From positions 13,090 to 77,089 of the forward strand of contig VGPD01000002.1 in NCBI GenBank assembly GCA_016875635.1: a DNA stretch of 64,000 bases, in the 5' to 3' direction. The notes under the pieces are model-generated. The model ran no database searches, had not been told where the DNA came from, and saw only the letters and a program-made list of their open reading frames with translations. The position numbers and the translations under genes are program-made. This DNA comes from Chloroflexota bacterium. GTDB taxonomy: Bacteria > Chloroflexota > Dehalococcoidia > UBA2979. Shown piece by piece: positions 4,015 through 55,945 of this stretch (position 1 is the stretch's first letter; every line of letters starts with the position of its first letter).

Positions 4015-5301
4015 ATGAGTACCGGTCCGCTCGCTGGCGTCCGGATTCTCGAATTCTCACAGATTGTCGCCGGCCCATTCGCGGGGGTGGCGCTCGCCCA
4101 GCTGGGGGCGGATGTGGTGAAGGTGGAGCCGCTCGAGGGAGAGGGGCGCCGTAACACTGGCGCTGTCGTCCCGAACGAGGGCAAGTACTTCCAGTCGTTG
4201 AACATCGGGAAGCGCAGCCTGACGGTGGACCTCTCGCGGCCCGAGGGGCAGGCGCTAATCCACCAGATCATCCCGACATTCGACGTGGTGATCTCGAACT
4301 ACCGCGTGGGTGTGCCGAAGAAGTTGAATATCGACTACGACACGCTCTCCAAACTGCGGCCGGGGCTGATCTACGCCACGATCACGGGATTCGGGGAGAA
4401 GGGCCCGTATGCGACGCGCGCCGGGTCGGACATTGTCGCGCAGGCATACAGCGGTTTGATGGCCGCGGAGGGGAAGGTGGACGAGTACGGCTCGCCGGCC
4501 TCGATTTCCAGCACGACGATGGCGGACCGCGGCACCGGCCTGGCGGCGGCGATGGGGATCATCGCGGCTCTGTACCACCGCGCCACCACGGGCGAGGGGC
4601 AGGAGATCAACGTGTCGCTGATCCAGACGGCGCTGGAGCTGCTCTCCGACAAGGTGATGCGTGAGCCGGTGCAGGACGCCACCCTCCGCGACCCGGTCGT
4701 CGCGCAACTGGTCGAGCGGCGGAACGCCGGCGCCTCGTATCAGGAGTTGCTCGATATCCGGAAAGGTGCGCTCCGCGGGCGCACCGCGCAGCGGCTGTAT
4801 TACGGCGGGTACGGCACGGCCAATGGTGCGCTCGTCCTCGGCGCGCTGACGAAGCAGAACCGCGTGCAGATCCGCGAGATCATCGGGATGACGGATGACC
4901 TCGACGACCCGGACTACGACAGCAACGCCCCCGGCGCGGCCGAACGCTTCGAGGCGTGGCACGAGAAAGTCCAGGCGATCCTGATGACGAAGACGGCGAA
5001 GGAGTGGGTGGCGCTCCTGCTCGCCAACGGCGTCCCGGCGAGCGAGGTGAACATCGCCGAGGAGATGTCCGAGGATCCGCACGTCGTGGCGACGGGGATG
5101 ATGGTGGACCTGGTCCACCCGATCACCGGGCCGCAGAAAGTCGTCGGTCCGCTGGTGAAAATGTCCGCGACGCCGACCGGTGTGCAGCGGTCCGCGCCGC
5201 CGCTGGGCTACCACTCGCGCGAGGTGCTCGCCGAGGCGGGGCTGCCCGATGGGGAGATCGCGACGCTCATCGAGATGGGTGTCGTCGGCGACCACAGCTA
5301 G
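4015..5301 (+). CDS. CoA-transferase family III protein (CaiB/BaiF/formyl-CoA transferase-like)
   Basis: N-terminal LAGVRILEFSQIVAGPFAGVALAQLGADVVKVEP is the signature opening of family III CoA transferases. 428 aa. Confidence 0.85.
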   Translation: MSTGPLAGVRILEFSQIVAGPFAGVALAQLGADVVKVEPLEGEGRRNTGAVVPNEGKYFQSLNIGKRSLTVDLSRPEGQALIHQIIPTFDVVISNYRVGVPKKLNIDYDTLSKLRPGLIYATITGFGEKGPYATRAGSDIVAQAYSGLMAAEGKVDEYGSPASISSTTMADRGTGLAAAMGIIAALYHRATTGEGQEINVSLIQTALELLSDKVMREPVQDATLRDPVVAQLVERRNAGASYQELLDIRKGALRGRTAQRLYYGGYGTANGALVLGALTKQNRVQIREIIGMTDDLDDPDYDSNAPGAAERFEAWHEKVQAILMTKTAKEWVALLLANGVPASEVNIAEEMSEDPHVVATGMMVDLVHPITGPQKVVGPLVKMSATPTGVQRSAPPLGYHSREVLAEAGLPDGEIATLIEMGVVGDHS

Positions 5302-5554: not shown

Positions 5555-5746
5555 ATGGACGTGTCCAACAGCACCGACGTGTTTCTGCGAGCGATGGTCT
5601 CGCAGGCACCGGTCTACATCGTGGCGATCGACGGCGAGGGGCGCTTCGTCAGGCTCGAAGGCGATCTGGTGCGAAGGATGGGGATCGACCCGGAGCGAGC
5701 GATCGGGGCATCGGCGTTCGATTACCTGCAGGTGTGCCGGTCCTAG
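5555..5746 (+). CDS. short PAS-like fragment ORF (possible remnant)
   Basis: MDVSNSTDVFLRAMVSQAPVYIVAIDGEGRFVRLEGDLVRRMGIDPERAIGASAFDYL looks like the N-terminal half of a PAS fold. Too short for a full domain, and it overlaps the 3' end of the SARP gene. Confidence 0.25.
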   Translation: MDVSNSTDVFLRAMVSQAPVYIVAIDGEGRFVRLEGDLVRRMGIDPERAIGASAFDYLQVCRS

Positions 5747-6942
5747 ACCGCTGTGAGCGCCTCCATGAGTGCCCGCTCGACCACGGCGGAAGGCTGCGCC
5801 CCCACCTCGCTCCTCAGGATGCGGCGGTAGTCCTCGTACTGCCGGCGTGCGTCCGTTCGCCGTCCCAGGTGGCCGTAATAGGTGATCAGCGCGACCTGGA
5901 ACTGCTCCTGGAGCGGGTCAGATTGCAACGCGCGTTCGCAGCATTCCACGCTCTGCTCGATGGCGCCGCGCACGGCGAAGGAGACGGCTGCCCGCGCGAG
6001 CAGGTCGTGGTAGAGCCGGCGCAGCCGGCGGTGGTGCGCGGTGGCCCACGCGCCGAAATCCTCTCCGGCGGCGAAGTCACCGCGGTACAGCGCGAGTGCG
6101 TCCTCGATGGCGGACGGAGATCCGACGCCGTCGCCGGCGCGAAGCGCAGCATGCGCACGGGTTTCGAAATCCACCGCGTCAATACGCAGCGTGGGAGTTT
6201 CATCGAGCACGTACATGGTGCCCTGACGCCGCAGCGGGACGTCCGGGCCGGCCGAGTTGAGCAGTTGCCGCAGGCCGTGGAGGAGTACGCGGAGCCGGGG
6301 GCCTGAGAGATCGATCGACTCGTCCGGCCAGAGATCCTCCGCGATCCAGTCGCGTTGCGCGCCGCCCGGACCGGCGATCGCGAGGTAGGCGAGCAATTCA
6401 AGCACCCGCCGCCGTGGTGGCATCGGCAGCGGGACGCCACCGGCGAGGAGTGCCACCGGGCCGAGCAGGCGGATGTCCAGGGTGGCGTTGGCCGGGGCGG
6501 TTGCTCCGCGGACGTGGATCGTGACGAGCGCGACCTCGCCTCCGGCCTCGCGGGACGGGGCGGCGATGACCGAGCCGCTGATCGGGATGCGACGGCCGTC
6601 GCGTGTCTGCCATTCGGCCCACGGGAGCGGCACAGGTTCATGTCGCACCAGCGCGTCGTAGACCGGACAGTCGACGGTCTGGCAGAGGCACTGCCCGTCG
6701 GGCAGGCCCGCGCCCATCAGTTCGTCGCAGGCGCGCCCCAGAATCTGGTCTTCCGGGATGCCCATGAGGTTCCGTGCGGCCTCGTTGGCGGCCAGGACGC
6801 GCTGCCCGGCGCCCACCACAAACGCGGCGTCCGCCGTGAGGTTCACCAGGTCGCTCAGCCTCATGGGAGTCCCATTCAAGGCAATCTGCTGTAACTGGGA
6901 TGTAACTCCCGACTCAGGGTGACCGGAAGTGACCAACGTCAC
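5743..6942 (-). CDS. SARP-family transcriptional regulator with N-terminal Cys-rich PAS-like sensor domain (PAS + OmpR-type wHTH + BTAD)
   Basis: LLGPVALLAGGVPLPMPPRRRVLELLAYLAIAGPGGAQRDWIAEDLWPDE is a SARP winged-helix. ALALYRGDFAAG...PLQEQFQVALITYYGHLGRRTDARRQYEDYRRILRSEVGAQPS is a BTAD. The N-terminal region has C-x13-C-x-C-x4-C. The track start is GTG at 6942; an ATG at 6864 is the alternative. Confidence 0.75.
   Translation of the reverse strand: MTLVTSGHPESGVTSQLQQIALNGTPMRLSDLVNLTADAAFVVGAGQRVLAANEAARNLMGIPEDQILGRACDELMGAGLPDGQCLCQTVDCPVYDALVRHEPVPLPWAEWQTRDGRRIPISGSVIAAPSREAGGEVALVTIHVRGATAPANATLDIRLLGPVALLAGGVPLPMPPRRRVLELLAYLAIAGPGGAQRDWIAEDLWPDESIDLSGPRLRVLLHGLRQLLNSAGPDVPLRRQGTMYVLDETPTLRIDAVDFETRAHAALRAGDGVGSPSAIEDALALYRGDFAAGEDFGAWATAHHRRLRRLYHDLLARAAVSFAVRGAIEQSVECCERALQSDPLQEQFQVALITYYGHLGRRTDARRQYEDYRRILRSEVGAQPSAVVERALMEALTAV
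6890..6907 (+). promoter_or_regulatory. tandem heptamer direct repeat TGTAACT-GGGA-TGTAACT (SARP-box-like, 11-bp periodicity)
   Basis: Read directly. It lies in the extreme 5' region or leader of the SARP gene, on the opposite strand. Confidence 0.4.
6929..6942. promoter_or_regulatory. 14-bp palindrome GTGACCAACGTCAC (candidate operator) at the SARP gene start
   Basis: Perfect inverted repeat GTGAC/GTCAC with a 4-bp spacer. A third GTGAC copy sits 7 bp upstream. Confidence 0.3.
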
Positions 6943-7044
6943 GCAGACGGATGTCTCCTGGCCCTCATTTCCGCCCGGCCGCCCGACGAATATGGCGGCG
7001 AATTCAAGTTAGGCGCTCAGATTGGTGGATGCGGTCGGCGGCGC

Positions 7045-7062
7045 TGTAACTGACGAGTAACT
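7045..7062 (+). promoter_or_regulatory. tandem heptamer direct repeat TGTAACT-GACG-AGTAACT (SARP-box-like), about 8 bp upstream of a -10-like GAGAAT, in front of the molybdoenzyme operon
   Basis: Read directly. The 7+4+7 architecture is the same as in known SARP binding sites. GAGAAT is at 7072-7077, and the alpha-subunit ATG is at 7147. Confidence 0.45.
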
Positions 7063-7146
7063 CGCAAGGGGGAGAATCCACGCAGATCGCGCATGCGGTC
7101 ACAAGCGCAAAGCGTACCGGTGTGGACGGAATCTGGAGCACGCCCG

Positions 7147-10100
7147 ATGAATGACCAGGCTCGGCTGCCTCGACGGTCGTTTCTGAAGCGCGCGGCGGCG
7201 ATCGGCGCTGGGGTCGCCCTTGCGGACGCACTGGCGTTCGAGCCGTGGCATCTGGAGGCGAGCGATCCGGTCACGGTGACGGAGCCGCTGAAGATCTACC
7301 CGGACCGGAAGTGGGAGAGCGTCTACCGCGACCTCTGGAAGCCCGACAGTTCGTACGTCTTCACCTGCGCCCCGAATGACACGCACGACTGTCTCCTGAG
7401 CGCCCAGGTGAAGAACGGCGTGGTCGTGCGCATTGCCCCGACCTACGGGTACGGGAAGGCGAAGGACCGGAACGGCAACGGCGCCTCCCACCGGTGGGAT
7501 CCGCGCGCCTGCCAGAAGGGCCTCGCGCTGGCGCGGAAGTTCTACGGCGACCGGCGGGTGAAGGGGCCGATGATCCGCAAGGGCTTCAAGGAGTGGGCGG
7601 ACGCGGGCTTCCCGCGCGAGGCCGACACTGGCAAACCGAAGATGGACACCTCGAAGCGCGGCGAGGACTCGTGGCTCAAGTTGCCCTGGGATGAGGCGTA
7701 CGCGTACGCGGCGAAGGCCTACCAGAACATCGCCACCACGTACTCAGGCGACAAGGGGGCACAGTTCCTGCAGAAGCAGGGCTACGACCCCGACATGATC
7801 AGCGCGATGTCCGGCGCCGGGACGCGCGCCCTGAAGATCCGCGGCGGCATGCCGTTGCTGGGGATCGGGCGCATCTTCGGCTTCTACCGCCACGCGAATA
7901 CGCTGGCGCTGCTGGACGACAGCATCCGGAAGGTGGGCAAGGACGCGGCGCTGGGCGCACGCGGGTGGGACAACTACTCGTGGCACACCGACCTGCCGCC
8001 GGGCCACCCGATGGTCACCGGCCACCAGACATTCGAGTTCGACCTGTTCGCGCCGGAGTATGCCGACCTGGTGGTCATGTTCGGCATGAACTGGATCTCG
8101 ACGAAGATGCCGGACGGGCACTGGTTGGCCGAGGCCCGGATGAAGGGCACGCGCCTGATCACGGTGACCACGGACTACCAGTCCACCTCCAACCGGGCGG
8201 ACGAGGTCATCATGATCCGCCCCGGCACGGACGCGGCGCTCGCGCTCTCCTGCTCCCAGTACATCATCGCGAACCGGTTGTACGACGAGGCTGCGGTCAA
8301 GCGGACGACGGACCTGCCGTTGCTGATCCGCATGGACACGAAGAAGTTGCTCTCCGCGTCGGACCTGGTGTCCGGGTATCAAGCGGCGACACTCACGAAC
8401 TACGTGACGATGCTGCCGACTGGCCAGTCGATGCCGACGCCGACGCAGCAAGCGACGATGTACCTGACGCCCGAGCAGCGCGCAGAGTGGGGTGACTTCG
8501 TCGTCTGGGACGCCCGCACCAGCCGTGCCGTGCCTGTGACACGCGACCAGGTGGGCGACAAGTTCACGACCGACCCGGCGCTTGAGGGCGAATTCGAGGT
8601 GACGCTGGCCAACGGCCAGAAGGTCAAGGCACGCACCGTCTTCTCACTGGTCAGGCAGTACCTGGACGACAACTTCACGCCGGCCGTGGCCTCCGAGGTC
8701 ACCTGGGCGCCGCAGGCCGCGATCGAGGGGCTGGCGAAGCAGATTGCGAAGGCGAAGCAGAAGACCCTGCTGCCGCACGGGATGGGGCCCAACCACTTCT
8801 TCAACGCCCACCTGAAGGACCGCGCGATCTTCCTGCTCGCGGCATTGACCGACAACATCGGCCACATCGGTGGAAATGTCGGTTCGTACGCAGGGAACTA
8901 CCGCGGCTCGGTGTTCAACGGGATCCCCCAGTTCATCCAGGAGAACCCGTTCGATCTGGAGCTCGACCCCACGAAGCCGGCCCGGCAGAAGGGCTACTAC
9001 AAGAGCGAGTCCGCCCACTACTACAACTACGGCGACCGACCACTGCGGGTCGGGAACAAGAACTTCACGGGCAAGTCGCACATGCCGTCGCCCACGAAGT
9101 TGATCCACGTCGGCAACTCCAACTCGCTGCTGGGGAACGCGAAGTGGCACCACGATGTCGTCCACAACACGCTGCCGAGGATCGAAGCGATCTTCGTGAA
9201 CGAGTGGTGGTGGACGGCCTCCTGTGAGTACGCGGACATCGTGTTCGGGGTGGACTCGTGGGCGGAGCACAAGTTCGTGGACGCGTCCGCGTCCTGCACC
9301 AACCCGTTCCTGCACATCTACCCGCGCTCGCCCCTGAAGCGGATCTTCGACACGCGCTCCGACTACGAGGTGCTGGCGGGGGTAGGGAAGGCGCTGGGCG
9401 CGCTCACCAATGACCAGCGCTTTGTGGACGCGTGGAAGTTCATCCACGAAGGGAAGTCGGAGGTCTACCTCCAGCGCATCTTCAACGCCTCCACGACCGC
9501 CCGCGGCTACGACGTCCTCGACCTGGAGGCGAAGGCCCAGCAGGGGATCCCGGCGCTGATGAATTTCCGCACCTACCCCCGTCAGGGTGGCTGGGAACAG
9601 CGGAACGAGAGCAAGCCGCAATACACGAAGACGGGCCGGCTGGAGTTTTACCGGGACGAGGCGGAATTCATCGAGCACGGGGAGAACCTGCCGGTGTTCC
9701 GCGAGCCGATCGACTCCACGTTCCACGAACCGAACGTGATCCACGGGAAGCCACACCCGATGCTCGCGCCGAGCGGGCCGGAGGTGTACGGGCTGAAAGT
9801 GGACGACCTCTCCGCGGAGGCGCGCCAGGTGCGCAACGTGGTGAAGTCGTGGTCGGAGTTGAAGGTCACGAAGCACCCGCTGACCAACAAGGATCCGAAC
9901 TTCAAGTTCATCTTCATCACGCCGAAGTACCGACACGGCGCGCACACGACGCCGGTCGACCTCGACTGGATCTCGATGCTGTTCGGCCCGTACGGGGACA
10001 TCCGGCGGCAGGACAAGCGCGCCCCGTGGGTGGGTGAGGGGTACATCGAGATCCACCCGAAGGACGCGAAGGCATTCGGCATCGAGGACGGTGACTACGT

Positions 10101-10620
10101 CTGGTTCGACGCCGACCCGGAGGACCGCCCGTACCGCGGGTGGAAAAAGGACGACCCGTACTACAAGGTGGCCCGCGGCATGGCACGGGCCCGGTACCAG
10201 GCCTCGTTGCAGCCCGGCGTCACGCGCATGTGGTTCCACATGTACGTCGCGACGAAGGGCTCGGTGAAGGGGCAGGCGACACGTCCCGACGGGCTGGCGA
10301 AGAGCCCCGAGACGAACTACCAGGCGATGTTCCGCTCCGGCAGCCACCAGAGCGGTACGCGCGCCTGGCTCGGGCCCACGCTGCAAACCGAGACCATGGC
10401 CCGCAAGCCGTACTTCGGGCAGTTGATGGGGAAGGGGTTCGAGGGGGACGTCCACTCGGTGGTCGGTGCTCCCAAGGAGTCCTTCATCAAGATCGAGCGT
10501 GCCGAAGAGGGCGCGGTGGGCGGCAAGGGCCTGTGGCTCCCCGCGAAGGAAGGACTGCGTCCGACCTACGAGTCCGACGCGATGAAGAAGTACCTGAGCG
10601 GCGCGTTCTTCAGCGCGTAG
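7147..10620 (+). CDS. Tat-exported molybdopterin oxidoreductase alpha subunit, NarG-like (type II DMSO reductase family; NxrA/pNarG-like), unknown substrate
   Basis: Twin-arginine motif [14 protein letters not shown]. The N-terminus aligns residue by residue with E. coli NarG FS0 (NarG THGVNCTGSCSWKIYVKNG versus here [19 protein letters not shown]), then RAC.KG and PMIRKG as in NarG. Start is preferred at ATG 7147 (GGAG 8 nt upstream) rather than the track start 7093. 1157 aa. Confidence 0.85.
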
Positions 10621-10659
10621 CCCTACGCCCCCGCGGGGGCACTGGAAGGGAACGGCCCG

Positions 10660-11790
10660 ATGCCTGACGTCTTCAACTGGCAGCTCGACCGTCCGATGAA
10701 GTACCAGTACGAGGAGGCGCGACCCCAGAAGCAGATCGCGTGGATCTTCGACACGAACAAGTGCATCGCGTGCCAGACCTGCACCATTGCGTGCAAATCC
10801 ACCTGGACCTCCGGCAGCGGCCAGGAGTACATGCTCTGGAACAACGTGGAGACGAAGCCGTTTGGCTTCTTCCCCACAGGCTGGGACGTGAAGCTCCTGG
10901 AGATCATGGGCCCGGACGCCTGGAAGGACGGGAAGTTCGCCGGCCAGACCGTCTTCGAGTCCGCGCCAGCCGCGGAGCGGGTGAAGGGCCACCTGTTCGA
11001 CGCCGACCACTGGTCCCACCCGAACCTGGGTGAGGACGAGCCGGCAGGCGAGGCGGCACGCGGGACACACATCGACAAGCTGCCGCACGACATGTGGTTC
11101 TCCTACCTCGCGCGGATCTGCAACCACTGCACCTATCCCGCCTGTCTTGCGGCCTGTCCGCGGCAGGCGATCTACAAGCGGCCGGAGGACGGCATCGTCC
11201 TCGTCGACCAGGAGCGCTGTCGCGGCTATCAGGAGTGCGCGAGCGCCTGCCCGTACAAGAAGACGATGTACAACGAGGACACGCGGGTCACGGAGAAGTG
11301 CATCGCCTGCTACCCGAAGATCGAGCAGGGGCTGCAGCCGCAGTGCGTCACCTCCTGTATCGGGAGGATCCGCCTCGCGGGTTTCATCAGCCCTCCGGGC
11401 AAGATCGACCCGAAGAACCCGATCGACTATCTGGTGAAGGTGAAGAAGGTCGCGCTGCCGCTGTACCCGCAGTCCGGCACCGAGCCGAACGTCTACTACA
11501 TCCCGCCGGTCCACTCGAAGCGCGAGTACCTCCGCCAGATGTTCGGCCCGGGCGTGGATGTCGCCGTCGACACCTACCTGAAGACCAAGGAAGACCCGCA
11601 GATGCTGGGCCTGTTCATGCTCTTCGGGTCGACCGAACGGATCATCCGGCAGTTCGAAGTGAAGGGCAGCATGGCGATCGGATACGACGAGACGGGGAAG
11701 GAGCTGGTGAGCGTCCCCGTCACGGAACCCAGCGTGGTGCGTGAATACTTCGACCGGGTGAACCAGACGTACGTCCACAACATCACCTAG
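10660..11790 (+). CDS. iron-sulfur beta subunit, NarH/NxrB/EbdB-like (four Cys clusters)
   Basis: QIAWIFDTNKCIACQTCTIACK, CNHCTYPACLAACP, CRGYQECASACP and CIACYPK...CVTSCIGRIR. 376 aa, shorter than NarH. Confidence 0.85.
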   Translation: MPDVFNWQLDRPMKYQYEEARPQKQIAWIFDTNKCIACQTCTIACKSTWTSGSGQEYMLWNNVETKPFGFFPTGWDVKLLEIMGPDAWKDGKFAGQTVFESAPAAERVKGHLFDADHWSHPNLGEDEPAGEAARGTHIDKLPHDMWFSYLARICNHCTYPACLAACPRQAIYKRPEDGIVLVDQERCRGYQECASACPYKKTMYNEDTRVTEKCIACYPKIEQGLQPQCVTSCIGRIRLAGFISPPGKIDPKNPIDYLVKVKKVALPLYPQSGTEPNVYYIPPVHSKREYLRQMFGPGVDVAVDTYLKTKEDPQMLGLFMLFGSTERIIRQFEVKGSMAIGYDETGKELVSVPVTEPSVVREYFDRVNQTYVHNIT

Positions 11791-11834
11791 CGCATCGGCA
11801 GTGATCGCGGACTCGACAGAGCGGAGTCGGAACC

Positions 11835-12779
11835 ATGGCAACAGATTCAGATGGGCCGGCTGGCACGCAGCAGAGTGAGACAACGGCAGAGGTCGGCCGG
11901 CGACAGTTCCTCAAGCGCGCCGGCGCCGCGGCCGCTGCGGGGACAGTCGGCGCCGGCGTCATCGGCTATGCGGCGACGAACAAGCGAGGCGCGGCGAAGT
12001 CCCTCGTCTGCGGCTACCGCGCTGGCGACCTGCCGGTTGTTGATCCGGCAAGCGCGGTCTGGACGCGGCGGTCCGCGTTCAAAGTGACCATGCTGGTCCA
12101 GAACATCGCGACGCCGCATGCTCCGGCGCTGGTCGTGCCGACCCTGAAAGTGCGGGCGCTTCACAACGGCACGCAGATCGCCTTTCACCTCGAGTGGGCG
12201 GACAACTCGAAAGACGAATTGAGCGGCCTCGCACGGTTCAACGACGCGGTCGCAGTGCAACTGGCGGCAGATTTCGCGAAGGAGGCGGCGACCGGGGTGA
12301 CCATGGGGGCGGTGGACAACCCCGTGCATATCCTGCAGTGGAAGGCCTCCTGGCAGTCGGACCTGGACAGCGGTCAGAAAACCTCGAAGGACATCTGGCC
12401 GAACATCTACAACGACGTGCGTCCGGAGCAACTGATGCCGGTCGACCAGGCGAAGAGCTGGTACCCCGGCTGGGCGGTCGGAAACCCGCTCTCACAGCGG
12501 GACAAGAAGTCTCCGGTGGAAGAGATGGTCGCCGTCGGGTTTGGGACGCTCACGACACACAAAGAGCAGGAGGCTGTGGGGAAGGGCATCCACGATCGCA
12601 ACCGCTGGCGCGTCGTGATCGCAATGCCGATGAAGGGGAACGGCGCCAACAAGGCGCAGGTGACGCCTGGGCAGACCCGCCAGATCGCCTTCGCCGTCTG
12701 GGACGGCGGTGAGGATCAACGCGGCTCTCGCAAGCAGTACGCCCTCTGGGTGCCGATGGAAGTGGAGGCCGTCGCATGA
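11835..12779 (+). CDS. putative heme-b gamma subunit (EbdC/DdhC/NxrC-like, EB_dh family) with its own Tat signal
   Basis: RRQFLKRAGAAAAAGTVGAGVIGYAA twin-arginine signal. Its size and position after the beta gene match gamma subunits of type II enzymes. No CxxCH motif. Confidence 0.5.
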   Translation: MATDSDGPAGTQQSETTAEVGRRQFLKRAGAAAAAGTVGAGVIGYAATNKRGAAKSLVCGYRAGDLPVVDPASAVWTRRSAFKVTMLVQNIATPHAPALVVPTLKVRALHNGTQIAFHLEWADNSKDELSGLARFNDAVAVQLAADFAKEAATGVTMGAVDNPVHILQWKASWQSDLDSGQKTSKDIWPNIYNDVRPEQLMPVDQAKSWYPGWAVGNPLSQRDKKSPVEEMVAVGFGTLTTHKEQEAVGKGIHDRNRWRVVIAMPMKGNGANKAQVTPGQTRQIAFAVWDGGEDQRGSRKQYALWVPMEVEAVA

Positions 12780-13552
12780 CCACCGCAACGCAGTCGCTTC
12801 CCCTGCAGGCCGCCATCTTCCGCTCTGCGCTGTACGAGACGCTCGCGCTCAGTTTCGCCTACCCCACACCTCATCTCGGTGAGCGGCTCGAAGACGCCAT
12901 CGCCGACCTGCTTGAATTGCCTGAGGTCGCCGAGGCTGGTTACGCCGACGACCTGATGCGCATGCGCGACGCGTTGGCCGCGTCTTCGACGGACGTGCTC
13001 GCCATGGAGCACAACCATCTGTTCGAGCATTCGACGTTCTGTTCACCGTATGAGACCGAGTACGAGCCGGACCCGTTCGCGAAGGCGCGCCAGCTGGCGG
13101 ACATCGCCGGCTTCTACACCGCCTTCGGGATGTCCGTGTCCACGATGCGGCCCACGTTGCAGGACTTCCTTGGCACGGAGCTCGAGTTCATGTCGTTCCT
13201 GGCGCGGAAAGAGGCGTACGCCGCGGCGCGCAATTGGAGGCATCGCCGGCAGGTGACGGTGGACGCCGAACGTGCGTTCCTGCACGACCACCTCGGGCGG
13301 TGGGAGAAGGCGGTCTGCAAGGACGTCACGGACCACACGGCGATGGAAGCCGGCATGAACAGCGCGGCCCCGTTCTTTGGCGCCGTCGCCTCGCTGTGCG
13401 TCCGGTTCGTGGAGGACGAGCTCCGCCGCTTTGGCACGAAGCCGCTGCGTCTCACTCAGCGGATGGTCGGCAACGAAGAACCTGTCGCCTGTCCGTTCGC
13501 GAGCGCCGCCGCCGAGGACGAGCTCGAACCGCTTGACCCGGTCGAGGATTAG
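12776..13552 (+). CDS. TorD/NarJ-family redox-enzyme maturation chaperone (delta subunit)
   Basis: ATGA overlap with the gamma gene. Acidic all-alpha protein with EHNHLFE, GFYTAFG and FLARKEAY motifs typical of NarJ/TorD/EbdD-like chaperones. Confidence 0.65.
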   Translation: MTTATQSLPLQAAIFRSALYETLALSFAYPTPHLGERLEDAIADLLELPEVAEAGYADDLMRMRDALAASSTDVLAMEHNHLFEHSTFCSPYETEYEPDPFAKARQLADIAGFYTAFGMSVSTMRPTLQDFLGTELEFMSFLARKEAYAAARNWRHRRQVTVDAERAFLHDHLGRWEKAVCKDVTDHTAMEAGMNSAAPFFGAVASLCVRFVEDELRRFGTKPLRLTQRMVGNEEPVACPFASAAAEDELEPLDPVED

Positions 13553-13569
13553 AGGTCTCCGAGGAGGAT

Positions 13570-14211
13570 GTGATGGTCACCGTGCAACGTACGGCCGGCC
13601 CGGCCGCCGCTCCTTCGACCACGCAGAGTGATGCGGAGTGGCTGACGGGTGTCTATGCGCGCTCTGCACAACGGCATGAACGCCTCTGTCCTCGGCAGGT
13701 CCTCGGTGTGCGCATGGGACTCGCGGCCGCGGAGGCGCTCGGCGTCGATCCGCGTGCGTCCGGGAAGGCACTCTACATCTTCGCAGAGACGGACGGCTGT
13801 TTCGCGGACGGTGTGGAGGCGGCCACCGGCTGTTCCATGGGGCACCGGAACATGCGACTGATGGACTACGGCCGAGTCGCGATCGTCGCGGTGCACATCG
13901 AGTCGGGTGCCGCGGTCCGCATATCCCCTGCGCCTGGCGTGCGTGAGGCTGCGTCGGCGTACGCGCCGGACGAGTCTCGGCGGTACTACCAGCAGCTGGA
14001 GGGTTACCAGGCGATGCCGGATGCGGATCTCCTCCGCATCCGCCCGGTGAGCCTGCGCGTCGACCTCGCCGCGTTGCTCGGTCGGAAGGGCTTGCGGGTC
14101 GACTGCGACCGCTGCGGGGAGGAGGTCCTCAATGGCCGCCAGCACCTCGAATCTGGCCGCCCGGTCTGCCAGGGATGCACAGGCGGGGCGTTCTACTCCG
14201 CGATGAGCTGA
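13570..14211 (+). CDS. FmdE-family protein with C-terminal zinc ribbon
   Basis: QVLGVRMGLAAAEALG...ETDGCFADGVEAATGCSMGHRNMRLMDYGRVAIVAV matches the FmdE domain. A C-terminal CDRCGEEV...CQGC is present. A GAGGAGG RBS precedes the gene. Confidence 0.6.
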   Translation: MMVTVQRTAGPAAAPSTTQSDAEWLTGVYARSAQRHERLCPRQVLGVRMGLAAAEALGVDPRASGKALYIFAETDGCFADGVEAATGCSMGHRNMRLMDYGRVAIVAVHIESGAAVRISPAPGVREAASAYAPDESRRYYQQLEGYQAMPDADLLRIRPVSLRVDLAALLGRKGLRVDCDRCGEEVLNGRQHLESGRPVCQGCTGGAFYSAMS

Positions 14212-14605
14212 AGCGTCCGTTCGAACTGAGCCCTTGTCTTTGCCTGTGAGTCGGGGATGAACGACCGGTCATGATTCCCATCCGGAACGCCGGTGGGGCC
14301 ATCGTCTGGACGATCTCGGGCCGGCTGACAGGTGGGAACCACCAAGGCGCGCCGGCAAGTAATTCTTTTGCACTGGGCCTTTACAGAGAGGTTCCGGCAC
14401 CCTCCGGGGCCTTTCTGTACGCATGTGCCATGGCGTGCCTAGCGGGAAGGTGGGGTAGGCCCGAGGTCGCGTTCCGGGGCGGGCGCTGCTAGGATGGGGG
14501 CAACACACGCCGAGGGCGCCGCATGGCGCCGGCCTCCCGCAACCGGGACAGACCACACCGCGCAGCGCGAAGACGCGCGCGGGACCTCCAATCCGAAGGA
14601 ACCAT

Positions 14606-17128
14606 GTGACTCCAGCTTTCCGCAGCCTGCTTAAGAAGGTTCTCGGCGCCACGCCCGAGGACGGTGATTCAGCCGCCTCCGCCCCTCCTCCGCCCGCCCA
14701 GTACGATCTAGGCGGCGATGACCGCCCTGACACGGCGCCTCGTGCTGACGACGGCGATGATGCCGACGGCGATGATGGCTCGCCACGTCGCCGTCGCGGT
14801 CGTCGAGGCGGTCGCAATCGTCGCAAACACTCCGAAGACGAGGCAGCCGATCCGGTAGCCGCTTCCACCCCACCCGCCGCCCGACCGGCTACGCGCCCGG
14901 CCACCGCCTTGGCCTCGCGTTCCATCGTGATCGCGCGTCGCCGCCCGGCGGGCACGCCCGCCCCGGTCGTCGCACCCGCGGAGACGCGCTCGTACGGGTG
15001 GGGTCGTCGGGTGGACGGTGACGACGCCCGCGACGGCGACCGTGGCCGCCGCGGTAACCGTCGCGTGGTCCGATCTCGCGACCAGCAGCACGAGCCGCCC
15101 CTCCCGGAAGACGTTGCGTTTCGGTCGCCGCCCGAGGGAGGCGACCGGACGATCTTCCCGGGGCGCCGTCGTCGTCCACAGGTCATCCGCGAGGATGAGC
15201 GCGTGCTGCTCGCGGGGCCGCGGAGCCTCGGTGGGTGGATCGAACACGACATTCCGCTGCAGCCGTACGAGGCCTACCTGCCGCGTCCGTATGCGGTCGC
15301 TGTCGCCCTCGGCGTGCACGACCCCTTTGCCCTAGTCACGCCGCAAGGTGTGGCAGTGGACCCCGACCTGGTGCCAGCGGTCGACCCGCAGGCGATCGCC
15401 CTCGAGGTAGAGGCGATCACCGAGGCTGCGCTGGCGCCGGCAGAAGCCGATGGCACTTCGCCGGCCGGCGAAGGCGAAGGTGCGCAGAAACGTCGCCGTC
15501 GTGGACGCCGTGGCGGGCGTAACCGCCGCCGCAGTGCTGACGGCGTCTCGTTCGACGGCGCGACGGACGAAATCGATGCCGCCGTTGACGAGATCACGAG
15601 TGCGGTGGGCCTCGAAGAAGGCGCACCTGCAGTGAGCGAGTTCGACGCGATCGAGACGCTGGCGCCCGCCACGGTCGATGCGAGTGTCCATGTCGTGCCA
15701 CATCAGGCAGCGGCGCCGGAGATCGAGCGCATTGCCGTGACGCCAGAGCGTGGTCGTGTACCTGATGAAGATGACCGGCCGCGTGTTGAACGAAGGCGCA
15801 GCACTCGGACACGAAGCGCCGACGCCACATCGGTCCGTGCGGAGGCGACTGCCGCGTCCGAGGCGGCTCCCGCGCAGGCGCCTGAGGCGCGAACGGCCAC
15901 ACGTCGGGCACGGCCTGCGACGGCCACCGCCGACCCGTCAACGTACCCGCAGGCGTTTGTCGGGCTGGGCGCCACGGAGCGGACGCTTCCGGCGCTGGCC
16001 TCGTTCGGATTCCAGACCCCGACGCCGATCCAGGAGCAGGCGATCCCTGCCCTCATGGGTGGCCGCGACGTGGTGGGCATCGCGAAGACCGGTTCGGGCA
16101 AGACCGTCGCGTTCGGCGTGCCGATGGTAGAGAAACTGGACGCCGACCTCGGCGAAGTGCAGGGCATCGTGCTGGTGCCGACGCGTGAACTCGCGCAGCA
16201 GGTCCTTGAGGTGCTCCAGCTGCTGGCCGCCCCGCGCGGCATGCAGGCGATCGGCCTGCTGGGCGGGCACGCGATCCGGAACGACCTCCAGGCCCTGGAA
16301 CGCCGCCCGCAGATCGTCGTGGGGACGCCCGGACGGATCATCGACCACCTGCAGCGCGGCACCCTCTCGCTCCGCCTGGTGACGTATGCCGTGCTCGACG
16401 AGGCCGACCAGATGCTGGACATCGGCTTCCTGCCGGACATTCGCCGCATCCTGAGCCGCACTCCGAAGCGACGCCAGACCGCGCTGTTCTCCGCGACGAT
16501 GCCCGGGAGCATCCGGCGGTTGATCTGGCAGTTCATGTCCGACACTCAGCAGGTCGCGGTCGACGCGGAGTCGACGCCGGTGGAGTCGATCGAGCAGATC
16601 TACTTCGAGGTCGCCCATCGCGACAAAGCGGCGGGTCTGCGCGAGCTGATCGAGCGCGAGCTGAAGGGGCGCACGCTGGTCTTCTGCAAGACGAAGCGCG
16701 CGGTAGATATGCTGGAGGCGAACCTCTCGCGCATGGGTGTCCGCGTCGGTGCGTTGCATGGCGACATGGACCAGCGCCACCGTGACCACGTCATCGCCGA
16801 CTTCCGCTCGGGTGCGCTCGACGTCCTCGTGGCGACGAATGTGGCGGCGCGCGGGCTGGACATCCCGGAGATCACCCACGTCCTCAATTTCGACGTCCCC
16901 CAGAACCCCGAGGAGTACGTCCACCGGATCGGCCGGACCGGCCGCGCCGGCCGGGAGGGCAAAGCGATCACATTCGTCTCCGAGTGGGACATGGCCGAGT
17001 TCGACGCGATCCGTGCCGAGTTCGGTGACCGCCTCCACGAAGAGCGGTTGGACCTCTACCGCCCTCGTACCCCTCTCCGCTCTGCTTCTCTGGAGACGGA
17101 TTCCGGGGCAGCCCCCGCCGCTGATTAG
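14606..17128 (+). CDS. DEAD-box ATP-dependent RNA helicase with ~420-aa disordered Arg/Asp/Ala/Pro-rich N-terminal extension
   Basis: Q-motif (FGFQTPTPIQEQAIP), Walker A AKTGSGKT, DEAD (VLDEADQM), SAT, HRIGRTGRAG. GTG start at 14606 with an AAGGA RBS. The N-terminal repeat RRRRGRRGGRNRR occurs twice. Confidence 0.8.
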   Translation: MTPAFRSLLKKVLGATPEDGDSAASAPPPPAQYDLGGDDRPDTAPRADDGDDADGDDGSPRRRRGRRGGRNRRKHSEDEAADPVAASTPPAARPATRPATALASRSIVIARRRPAGTPAPVVAPAETRSYGWGRRVDGDDARDGDRGRRGNRRVVRSRDQQHEPPLPEDVAFRSPPEGGDRTIFPGRRRRPQVIREDERVLLAGPRSLGGWIEHDIPLQPYEAYLPRPYAVAVALGVHDPFALVTPQGVAVDPDLVPAVDPQAIALEVEAITEAALAPAEADGTSPAGEGEGAQKRRRRGRRGGRNRRRSADGVSFDGATDEIDAAVDEITSAVGLEEGAPAVSEFDAIETLAPATVDASVHVVPHQAAAPEIERIAVTPERGRVPDEDDRPRVERRRSTRTRSADATSVRAEATAASEAAPAQAPEARTATRRARPATATADPSTYPQAFVGLGATERTLPALASFGFQTPTPIQEQAIPALMGGRDVVGIAKTGSGKTVAFGVPMVEKLDADLGEVQGIVLVPTRELAQQVLEVLQLLAAPRGMQAIGLLGGHAIRNDLQALERRPQIVVGTPGRIIDHLQRGTLSLRLVTYAVLDEADQMLDIGFLPDIRRILSRTPKRRQTALFSATMPGSIRRLIWQFMSDTQQVAVDAESTPVESIEQIYFEVAHRDKAAGLRELIERELKGRTLVFCKTKRAVDMLEANLSRMGVRVGALHGDMDQRHRDHVIADFRSGALDVLVATNVAARGLDIPEITHVLNFDVPQNPEEYVHRIGRTGRAGREGKAITFVSEWDMAEFDAIRAEFGDRLHEERLDLYRPRTPLRSASLETDSGAAPAAD

Positions 17129-29820: not shown

Positions 29821-29897
29821 CGGGGTGTAGCTCAGCTTGGCAGAGCGCTTCGTTCGGGACGAAGAGGTCCCCGGTTCAAATCCGGGCACCCCGACCA
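29821..29897 (+). tRNA. tRNA-Pro (anticodon CGG)
   Basis: Cloverleaf folded by hand: acceptor CGGGGTG/CACCCCG, D-arm GCTC..GAGC, anticodon stem CTTCG/CGAAG with loop TTCGGGA, T-arm CCCGG-TTCAAAT-CCGGG, discriminator A, CCA. Confidence 0.85.
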
Positions 29898-54519: not shown

Positions 54520-54595
54520 GCGCCGGTAGCTCAGGGGATAGAGCAATAGTCTTCGGAACTATCGGTCGGGGGTTCGAATCCCTCCCGGCGCACCA
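54520..54595 (+). tRNA. tRNA-Arg (anticodon TCG)
   Basis: Hand-folded cloverleaf: acceptor GCGCCGG/CCGGCGC, D-arm GCTC..GAGC, anticodon stem ATAGT/ACTAT with loop CTTCGGA, T-arm GGGGG-TTCGAAT-CCCTC, discriminator A, CCA. Confidence 0.75.
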
Positions 54596-55444: not shown

Positions 55445-55945
55445 GACGCGGTTGGCAGCTAGGTCGCGCGAATCGAGCCGGCGGTCGATGGTGCCTACGC
55501 GCTCCCGCTCTCGCGGGGTTCGTATCTGATGGCGCTGCTGTCGCCACCGGTGTCGCGTTTGCCGTGGGCCCCACGCGGGCGTTCGATGTGCAGTCATCGG
55601 TGTGGACAGTGTTGGACGTCGCTTTCGACAGCGGGATTCGATAACGAACGTGGTGCGGTGAGATCCCCAGGAGATTCAGCCGGGGACAGCGGACATAACG
55701 ATCATATGTTCTGGCAATAGCCCCGGGGGTATTGCGCTGGCGGTCGTAAGGCGGCACGATCTCACCATTGTTTGAGGCAGACGCCAAAACTCGCGGCGCA
55801 TGGGCGTCCCGAGTACGGGGGAACCAACTACTGGGGCGTAACGGTCGGAGCCGGTGAATCCGGGGACGACAGTGCGGGACCTCCACCCGTAGCCCGTCAG
55901 CTCACCTCGTCGGCGTAAGGAGGAACCCCGGAGAGGGTTCCGCCG

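Follow-up and report, generated by a model that had tools for sequence, protein, structure and literature searches.

What is a gene that databases name after formylmethanofuran dehydrogenase doing at the end of an operon for a different molybdoenzyme? The question is raised by a stretch of 64,000 nucleotides of a Chloroflexota bacterium (GenBank assembly GCA_016875635.1, contig VGPD01000002.1, positions 13,090 to 77,089 of the forward strand), here called the window. It carries an FmdE-family gene (Pfam PF02663) at window positions 13573..14211 of the plus strand, which encodes 212 amino acids (the longest open reading frame, ORF, starts from a GTG at 13570) and which by ORF calls is the fifth of a same-strand array, behind the alpha, beta, gamma and delta genes. 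No fmd or fwd genes are present in this operon, the neighbours being three subunits like those of nitrite oxidoreductase (NXR; NxrABC-like) and a NarJ-like chaperone. An identical protein in NCBI (P0001), from a Chloroflexi metagenome-assembled genome (MAG), is titled ‘formylmethanofuran dehydrogenase [Chloroflexi bacterium]’, and as the partner is an NXR-like enzyme without fmd or fwd genes beside it, this name is misleading. FmdE and FwdE have been orphans since the fmd and fwd operons were sequenced in the mid-1990s, about 30 years ago. Here we argue that the gene product is probably a non-catalytic, non-structural accessory factor in the metabolism of the Mo/W cofactor bis-MGD (bis-molybdopterin guanine dinucleotide), likely acting in a late step together with MobA and MobB.

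The first indication comes from the company that relatives of this protein keep. The clade motifs [RH]LCPRQVLG and CxxCGEE[VI][LI]N were present in no fewer than 559 relatives in a scan of GTDB genomes, and the best 80 loci, nearly all from Chloroflexota with a few from Acidobacteriota, were analysed. A MopB catalytic subunit is encoded within 10 kb in 32 of the 42 loci that have at least 8 kb on both flanks, and L047 is a 33rd MopB-linked locus, overlooked owing to overlapping ORFs. Among the MopB-linked loci, the catalytic subunit lies upstream on the same strand in 28, and within 1.1 kb in 17. For comparison, the flanks of loci centred on alpha genes yielded 3 extra MopB genes in 884 kb, a background of about 6.6% per 20 kb. 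All MopB counts are hits of hidden Markov models (HMMs) on six-frame translations, which were used because the ORF caller sometimes chose antisense ORFs in these high-GC loci (its cluster 21, for instance, is FmdE antisense).

At least seven kinds of enzyme came up in this way: NXR-like, NarG, AioA, DmsA-type, FdhF/YdeP-type, TtrA-like and PhsA-like. NarG, AioA, DmsA/YnfE and FdhF/YdeP score above their NCBIfam cut-offs, the TtrA-like and PhsA-like assignments below them. FmdE terminates narGHJI-narK clusters that encode NarGHJI and two NarK-type carriers of the major facilitator superfamily (NarG 1472 bits, above cut-off); it accompanies AioA arsenite oxidases in L044 (1008 bits) and L010 (453 bits, cut-off 359) and a DmsA/YnfE-type enzyme in L046, and is convergent with FdhF/YdeP-type genes in L004 and L008. 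The commonest pattern consists of TtrA-like enzymes in B-C-A gene order behind a module of binding protein, kinase and regulator, while PhsA-like partners come with cytochrome b, multihaem and Rieske proteins. The original prediction had proposed to look for FmdE-like genes downstream of narJ- or torD-like genes in other genomes, and this arrangement does recur beside a different enzyme: in the PhsA-like A-B-C operons of L030 and L067, a TorD-like gene directly precedes FmdE. Taken as a set, the partner enzymes do not agree in their Mo ligand, their place in the cell or their Fe-S clusters, and what unites them is the bis-pyranopterin guanine dinucleotide (bis-PGD) cofactor. Furthermore, a single MAG (MFD01223.bin.1.30) carries two FmdE paralogues by two different enzymes (L046 and L072), which suggests that FmdE may be enzyme-dedicated rather than generic. 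A neighbour-joining tree of 88 FmdE sequences, calculated without support values and confounded by taxonomy, partly groups the NXR-, NAR- and cytochrome b-linked copies by context, a hint in the same direction. Apart from this, Family III CoA-transferase genes are found near FmdE-linked molybdoenzyme genes (window 4015-5301; L004 4054-6503 and 14151-15470), and in Chloroflexus spp. (L020, L041, L061, L064) FmdE is convergent with a gene for a HesB/IscA-type Fe-S carrier and with a CtaA-CtaB fusion for haem O/A synthesis.

Could the NXR-like enzyme simply have this protein as a genuine fifth subunit, structural or electron-transferring? Its place in the operon, as well as the historical name ‘formylmethanofuran dehydrogenase subunit E’, would allow for this. 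However, a single protein clade is found with seven enzyme types that are unrelated to each other, the gene is missing from most homologous operons and has no counterpart among the solved Kuenenia NXR-ABC chains, and the protein has neither a redox-cofactor motif nor a recognisable signal peptide, whereas alpha and gamma both carry signals for twin-arginine translocation (Tat). Searches of the PDB with phmmer and Foldseek likewise found no FmdE-like chain in solved enzyme complexes. We therefore regard a fifth subunit as barely credible.

More specific links to the molybdenum cofactor (Moco) are found directly next to FmdE. In a Pfam census of one upstream and two downstream neighbours per locus, the top family at position -1 is Molybdopterin (16 of 79 loci), and the top families at positions +1 and +2 are MobA-like NTP_transf_3 (9), TauE (9) and MoaA (8), with MFS_MOT1 occurring in 2. 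Moreover, in 13 of the 80 loci an nhmmer profile built from hits places a Moco riboswitch (RF01055) upstream of FmdE at a distance of less than 200 nt. Seven of these FmdE-adjacent riboswitches are identified by Rfam (L053, L071, L067, L024, L016, L022, L030) and six by nhmmer (L073, L050, L037, L014, L017, L023); all eight riboswitches submitted to Rfam, the seven mentioned and that of L039, reached the gathering score. In L053, the motif is located at 9678-9822, between the catalytic subunit and FmdE, and the riboswitch-controlled unit is often FmdE-TauE/TSUP permease-MoaA, just past the molybdoenzyme operon. In L039 and L077, RF01055 instead heads an operon for a transporter of the energy-coupling factor (ECF) type in which FmdE is the last gene, the motif of L039 being the one confirmed by Rfam. 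The ECF-type genes ahead of FmdE span 6391-9979 in L039, 5324-9875 in L077 and 4692-7988 in L167, and encode a double ATP-binding cassette (ABC) ATPase, an S-component-like protein, CbiQ and a protein of about 150 amino acids with a partial Oxidored_molyb domain; this system is a candidate for the uptake of Mo/W or the salvage of pterins.

A further direct connection is made by gene fusion. FmdE is fused to MobB in both domain orders (L039 9992-11140; L167 8001-9110; L168 8001-9005; L169 8001-9164), and when the L039 protein, which has the order FmdE-zinc ribbon-MobB, was used as a query, 101 of the best 120 database clusters were found to carry both PF02663 and PF03205. Several of these fusion clusters are titled MobB by NCBI. 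In the protein of L169 (P0209) the domains come in the reverse order, MobB-FmdE, and over core and zinc ribbon it shares 38% identity with the window protein; its gene has a MobA-like neighbour and faces an NXR-like operon with an alpha subunit 60% identical to that of the window. A fusion of the FmdE core to a MoCF_biosynth domain (PF00994) has been described as well (PMC2954224). As such, the proposal in the original prediction that the role is not catalytic is supported by the seven or more kinds of Mo-bisPGD enzymes, the MobA and MoaA neighbours, the Moco riboswitches and the MobB fusions. Its broader wording, a generic role in Mo/W or Fe-S cofactor handling, has fared unevenly: the pterin cofactor is well indicated, Fe-S clusters much less so, and ‘generic’ is doubtful in view of the two paralogues in L046 and L072.

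How might such a factor work? MobA makes bis-MGD, MobB, as a GTP-binding adapter, is in contact with MobA, MoeA and MogA, and NarJ couples the cofactor-biosynthesis machinery to apo-NarG. FmdE would then act at the last stage, beside MobA and MobB, where the finished cofactor is made and subsequently handed to an apo-catalytic subunit. In the window, the recipient would be the NxrA-like alpha subunit, held by the NarJ-like delta chaperone prior to Tat export. We infer that the window protein shares the function of its relatives, that it would bind either the cofactor or the Mob and chaperone machinery, and at which step it would act. A wider reading, which we hold more tentatively and with slightly less than even confidence, is that the FmdE family is an unrecognised component of final bis-MGD maturation, partnered by MobB, which would receive the finished cofactor or its metal, or present it to apo-enzymes. 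Methanogen FmdE and FwdE would then act alike, and the copy in the window would be an enzyme-dedicated paralogue that works beside the NarJ-like chaperone.

Taken by itself, the protein is nothing out of the ordinary, its family and its architecture both being known. The match to PF02663 reaches 86 bits, where the cut-off is 22.9, and covers positions 2-125 of the 133 in the profile (E 3e-24), so that the Pfam check which the original prediction proposed comes out well above the gathering score; its assignment of an FmdE domain followed by a C-terminal zinc ribbon likewise holds, as the four cysteines of the ribbon are invariant. The alpha+beta core domain is encoded at 13675..14013 (+; residues 36-148 of the GTG-start protein), and the four-Cys zinc ribbon or treble clef at 14104..14178 (+), as placed by alignment of relatives and 2gvi. 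Its residues C178, C181, C199 and C202 (CxxC...CxxC), which are predicted Zn ligands, are invariant in 28 and in 88 relatives, and the window ribbon aligns with Cys174, Cys177 and Cys195 of 2gvi in the phmmer alignment. The clade has invariant motifs of its own, LCPRQVLG, ETDGC and CxxCGEE. In the PDB, 2gvi (Ta1109, FmdE with zinc finger) is the sole phmmer match, at E 8e-13 and with an alignment that reaches the end of the zinc finger. A monomer model made with AlphaFold2 from 28 homologues reached a mean predicted local distance difference test score of 89.6, with low confidence for the N-terminal ~19 residues, and Foldseek retrieved only 2gvi, 3d00 and 2glz from the PDB at E<=1e-3 (probability 1.0, template-modelling score 0.50-0.69). 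No signal peptide can be recognised, and a cytoplasmic location is therefore presumed. It matches no NCBIfam model, and Pfam finds in it neither the NarJ/TorD chaperone family (PF02613) nor a MobB domain. Escherichia coli YdhW, from the pyranopterin-enzyme operon ydhYVWXUT, was considered as a characterised FmdE relative and rejected, as it has no Pfam match and an hhalign probability of 0.1%.

In the structures of the family (2GLZ, 2GVI and 3D00), the dimers are domain-swapped and have their His-His-Cys-Cys metal site on the floor of a large cleft of 20-30 Å, in which a ligand of unknown identity is bonded to a conserved Cys (PMC2954224). Axelrod et al. (2010) left the function open between chaperone, regulator and metal handling, and found that only 13 of 208 family members adjoin fmd genes (PMC2954224). 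By the alignment with 2gvi and the published description of the site, H35, C39 and C76 of the window protein correspond to three of the four metal ligands of 2GLZ and 2GVI (PMC2954224), with Arg37 in place of the second His. H35, C39, D74 and C76 are shared by all 88 relatives, and at position 37, 69 of them have H, 16 have R and 3 have S. The His-x-His-x-Cys site with its distal Cys (FHGHxC motif) does not define membership of the family, since 3D00 is without bound metal.

These residues bring up the possibility that molybdate, tungstate or some other metal is bound at the His/Cys site, and that FmdE, together with uptake systems, would serve as a metallochaperone or as a factor for Mo/W selectivity that supplies MoeA, an idea that overlaps with the cofactor role proposed above. 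Most family members adjoin metal-ion transporters, and the site was found occupied by Zn or Ni (PMC2954224). In the present set, FmdE ends the ECF-type transporter operons of L039, L077 and L167, is followed by the TauE/TSUP permeases (9) and MFS_MOT1 molybdate carriers (2) counted above, and is flanked by ABC/TOBE ATPases in L058 and L059. However, Zn and Ni are soft metals and not oxyanions, one of the ligands is gone from the window copy, and the commonest neighbours are the enzymes themselves and MobA. Furthermore, FmdE is fused to MobB, a protein of the GMP-attachment or adapter step, and not to MoeA, ModE or Mop. Pure metal handling is thus in our view unlikely. Could the conserved cysteines instead assemble or transfer FS0 or other Fe-S clusters of the catalytic subunit? 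The original prediction allowed for such a role, C39 and C76 are invariant, and a HesB/IscA-type carrier gene adjoins FmdE in the four Chloroflexus loci; in addition, the core has been described as thioredoxin-like (PMC2954224). Conversely, the solved structures hold mononuclear Zn or Ni and not Fe-S (PMC2954224), and Moco riboswitches, MobA, MoaA and MobB all indicate the pterin cofactor. Moreover, the cofactor-proximal cluster varies among the partner enzymes, that of AioA being 3Fe-4S. An Fe-S factor is accordingly highly improbable.

To what extent, then, is FmdE retained in orthologous operons? The same five-gene order recurs in independent contigs L001-L003 (alpha 95%, FmdE 80% identical) and in L166, in line with the earlier designation as fifth gene of the operon. 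Between the window and L001, which also share the divergent PAS-BTAD regulator described below, identity is 80% for FmdE, 82% for gamma, 83% for delta, 95% for alpha and 93% for beta, and FmdE thus diverges at the pace of gamma and delta. In L087 (alpha 72% identical), FmdE lies about 0.6 kb past delta. Five further loci, three from Dehalococcoidia MAGs in GTDB (L005, L007, L012) and two on metagenome contigs (L089, L090), have alpha subunits 69-71% identical and a rearranged order, delta<gamma<beta<alpha< regulator> FmdE>. Here FmdE comes straight after the regulator gene and shares its strand; by longest-ORF calls, the two overlap by 4 nt in L007. That the linkage of FmdE to the locus has outlasted this rearrangement argues for a function. 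Further away the association fades: among 80 alpha-centred metagenome loci (alpha 55-74% identical) the FmdE HMM was positive in 4. The original prediction had named absence from orthologous operons as grounds for its refutation, and the outcome is divided, with FmdE kept in the closest NXR-like operons and gone from 26 of 28 well-flanked distant ones. As such, the link between FmdE and the operon is lineage-restricted, kept where alpha is at least 69% identical, and is not a general need of NXR-like enzymes. It may be added as a separate observation that ORFs of 314-339 amino acids without a Pfam match follow the chaperone or gamma genes in two distant NXR-like clusters (L056 9060-10004; L169 9917-10936 (-)).

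The rearranged loci also bear on the idea that FmdE is a regulator, whose zinc finger and ligand-sensing core would either sense cofactor or metal or serve the PAS-BTAD activator of the operon as a partner. Its position directly behind the PAS-BTAD gene in L005, L007, L012, L089 and L090 would fit this, and many homologues match PF01258, a DksA/TraR-type finger. A C-terminal treble-clef zinc finger is also described in the FmdE structures, and led Axelrod et al. to suggest transcriptional regulation or metal sensing (PMC2954224). However, Pfam detects no DNA-binding domain in the protein, most other contexts have no adjacent regulator, FmdE instead following a catalytic subunit or preceding MoaA or MobA, and control by Moco riboswitches together with fusion to MobB is typical of biosynthetic genes. 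We consider a regulatory role very unlikely, and indeed the regulatory, Fe-S and subunit explanations all fit the riboswitch, MobA and MobB evidence poorly.

We must however take into account several points that weigh against a role of FmdE in late cofactor maturation. The evidence for a Moco role is comparative throughout, and for the window protein the function is taken over from relatives with 38-62% identity to it. The window itself contains no Moco riboswitch RF01055, and HMMs for MobA and MoaA were negative across its 64 kb. About 10 of the 42 fully flanked homologue loci have no MopB gene within 10 kb. In the window protein, the second His of the metal site is replaced by Arg37. In the sister genomes with rearranged loci, FmdE is co-oriented with the regulator and not with the structural genes, and it is missing from 26 of the 28 well-flanked homologous NXR-like operons (alpha 55-66% identical; flanks of 5.5 kb or more downstream and of 3 kb or more upstream, FmdE sought by HMM). 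E. coli, which is not known to have an FmdE, matures its bis-MGD enzymes all the same, so that FmdE would have to be lineage-specific and not generally essential. Lastly, the nxr cluster of Kuenenia is described without FmdE (PMC8387239).

At the level of the gene, an ATG at 13573 is the likelier start, rather than the GTG at 13570, in view of public gene models of 212 amino acids and of the spacing of a Shine-Dalgarno-like GAGGAGG found by inspection at 13561..13567 (+). This motif was originally placed 5 nt after the delta gene; it actually begins 8 nt past the delta stop codon (TAG, 13550-13552) and ends 5 nt ahead of the ATG. With 20 nt between the end of delta and ATG 13573, stop and start do not overlap, and of the translational linkage once proposed only co-transcription with the operon remains likely. 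A simple scan of 6800-14700 gave neither promoters nor terminator-like sites, and a search for inverted repeats 3' of the gene (14190-14640) gave short imperfect palindromes only.

As for the partner operon, the label ‘NarG-like’ given to it at first is better narrowed down to periplasmic-NXR-like. The alpha gene (7093..10620, +) encodes a Mo-bisPGD catalytic subunit of 1175 amino acids that is NxrA-like, with a Tat signal (RRSFLKR motif) and with PF00384 and PF01568; its best PDB match is Kuenenia NxrA (7b04_B, E 7.6e-273, full length). It is followed by beta (10660..11790, +), a four-cluster Fe-S subunit (Fer4_11, E 9e-31; TIGR03478) that best matches NxrB (7b04_A, E 2.4e-113), and by gamma (11835..12779, +), an EB_dh haem-b subunit (PF09459, E 6e-22) that best matches Kuenenia NXR-C (7b04_C, E 5e-21). 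Because alpha, beta and gamma all find their best match in NXR-A, -B and -C of Kuenenia stuttgartiensis (7b04), the operon would be periplasmic-NXR-like rather than NarGHI-like. The delta gene (12776..13552, +) encodes a chaperone of the NarJ/TorD family of type II dimethyl sulfoxide (DMSO)-reductase-family enzymes (PF02613, E 9e-18; TIGR03482, E 3.8e-17 and under cut-off). Thus, the features that mark NXR-like operons, a Tat-signal alpha, a four-cluster beta, an EB_dh haem-b gamma and a TorD-like delta, are all present. In NCBIfam, alpha to delta fall in type II DMSO-reductase-family subfamilies with all scores far under the cut-offs, and the operon is therefore best described as a putative divergent member of the type II DMSO-reductase-family or periplasmic NXR-like operons. 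Gamma carries a twin-arginine signal of its own besides that of alpha (TIGR01409, 19.7 bits against a cut-off of 16.7). Divergent from the operon lies the gene for a PAS and BTAD (SARP-like) regulator (5743..6942, -; BTAD E 2e-17; PAS_4), which is conserved beside the NXR-like operon in L001, L005, L007, L012, L089 and L090. Very long antisense ORFs, such as the one of 1079 amino acids at 8644-11883 (-) opposite alpha and beta, are high-GC artefacts and not genes. Elsewhere in the window are a c-di-AMP riboswitch (RF00379) at 55772-55927 (+) with 55.3 bits, a tRNA-Pro at 29821-29897 and a tRNA-Arg at 54520-54595.

Open-access text yielded no literature that links FmdE with Nar, Nxr, Chloroflexi, MobB or a riboswitch; the original Moco-riboswitch paper makes no mention of FmdE, nor does the paper on Kuenenia NXR (PMC8387239). 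That this clade is systematically associated with a variety of molybdoenzymes, with Moco riboswitches and with MobB therefore appears to be unreported in the open-access literature, and the FmdE-MobB fusion may be listed without comment in the architecture tables of InterPro. The neighbourhood over seven enzyme types, the riboswitch control and the MobB fusions in two orders are convergent and independent signals for Moco maturation, and give an orphan family a testable job with concrete candidate partners in MobA, MobB and NarJ-like chaperones. For heterologous expression of NXR-like and other Chloroflexota molybdoenzymes, an FmdE helper may be needed. Moreover, the label ‘formylmethanofuran dehydrogenase’ is misleading in Chloroflexota, where it carries a risk of false calls of methanogenesis or one-carbon pathways from metagenomes.

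How does the window protein compare with systems already known? Its closest structural counterparts, Ta1109 (2GVI) and SYN_00638 (3D00), are built from the same two domains and match it in fold (Foldseek E 1e-12 and 1.5e-8), and their His, Cys, Cys metal ligands and zinc-finger Cys align with those of the window protein. Identity is however only 21-24%, the window protein has Arg37 for the second His as well as clade-specific motifs, and their context is a metal transporter whereas that of the window is a Mo-enzyme operon. With methanogen FmdE and FwdE, the window protein shares the Pfam family and a gene position by a Mo/W-bisPGD enzyme, and neither is found in the enzyme structures; its operon, however, lacks fmd and fwd genes, and the partner is an NXR-like enzyme of the type II DMSO-reductase family. 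The FmdE-MobB fusions of Chloroflexota, known at NCBI under the name ‘molybdopterin-guanine dinucleotide biosynthesis protein B’, have an FmdE-zinc ribbon part of the same clade, which in L039 is 46% identical to the window protein over its whole length, although the latter stands alone, without a MobB domain or a MobA neighbour. With FdhD, the sulfurtransferase and chaperone that serves the Moco of formate dehydrogenase, there is an analogy only, that of a small Cys-dependent helper encoded near its client and serving a subset of bis-MGD enzymes. No relationship in sequence or fold was found, and the partners of FmdE include the oxo-type Nar, Nxr and Aio, in which no sulfido ligand is expected. 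Analogous in the role proposed are the redox-enzyme maturation chaperones NarJ/TorD/DmsD (PF02613), FmdE being likewise a presumed cytoplasmic, operon-encoded, non-subunit helper in the cofactor loading of bis-MGD enzymes. They are unrelated to FmdE in fold and family, FmdE has metal sites, and FmdE also occurs in operons that have no TorD-like gene, such as the TtrBCA-like ones.

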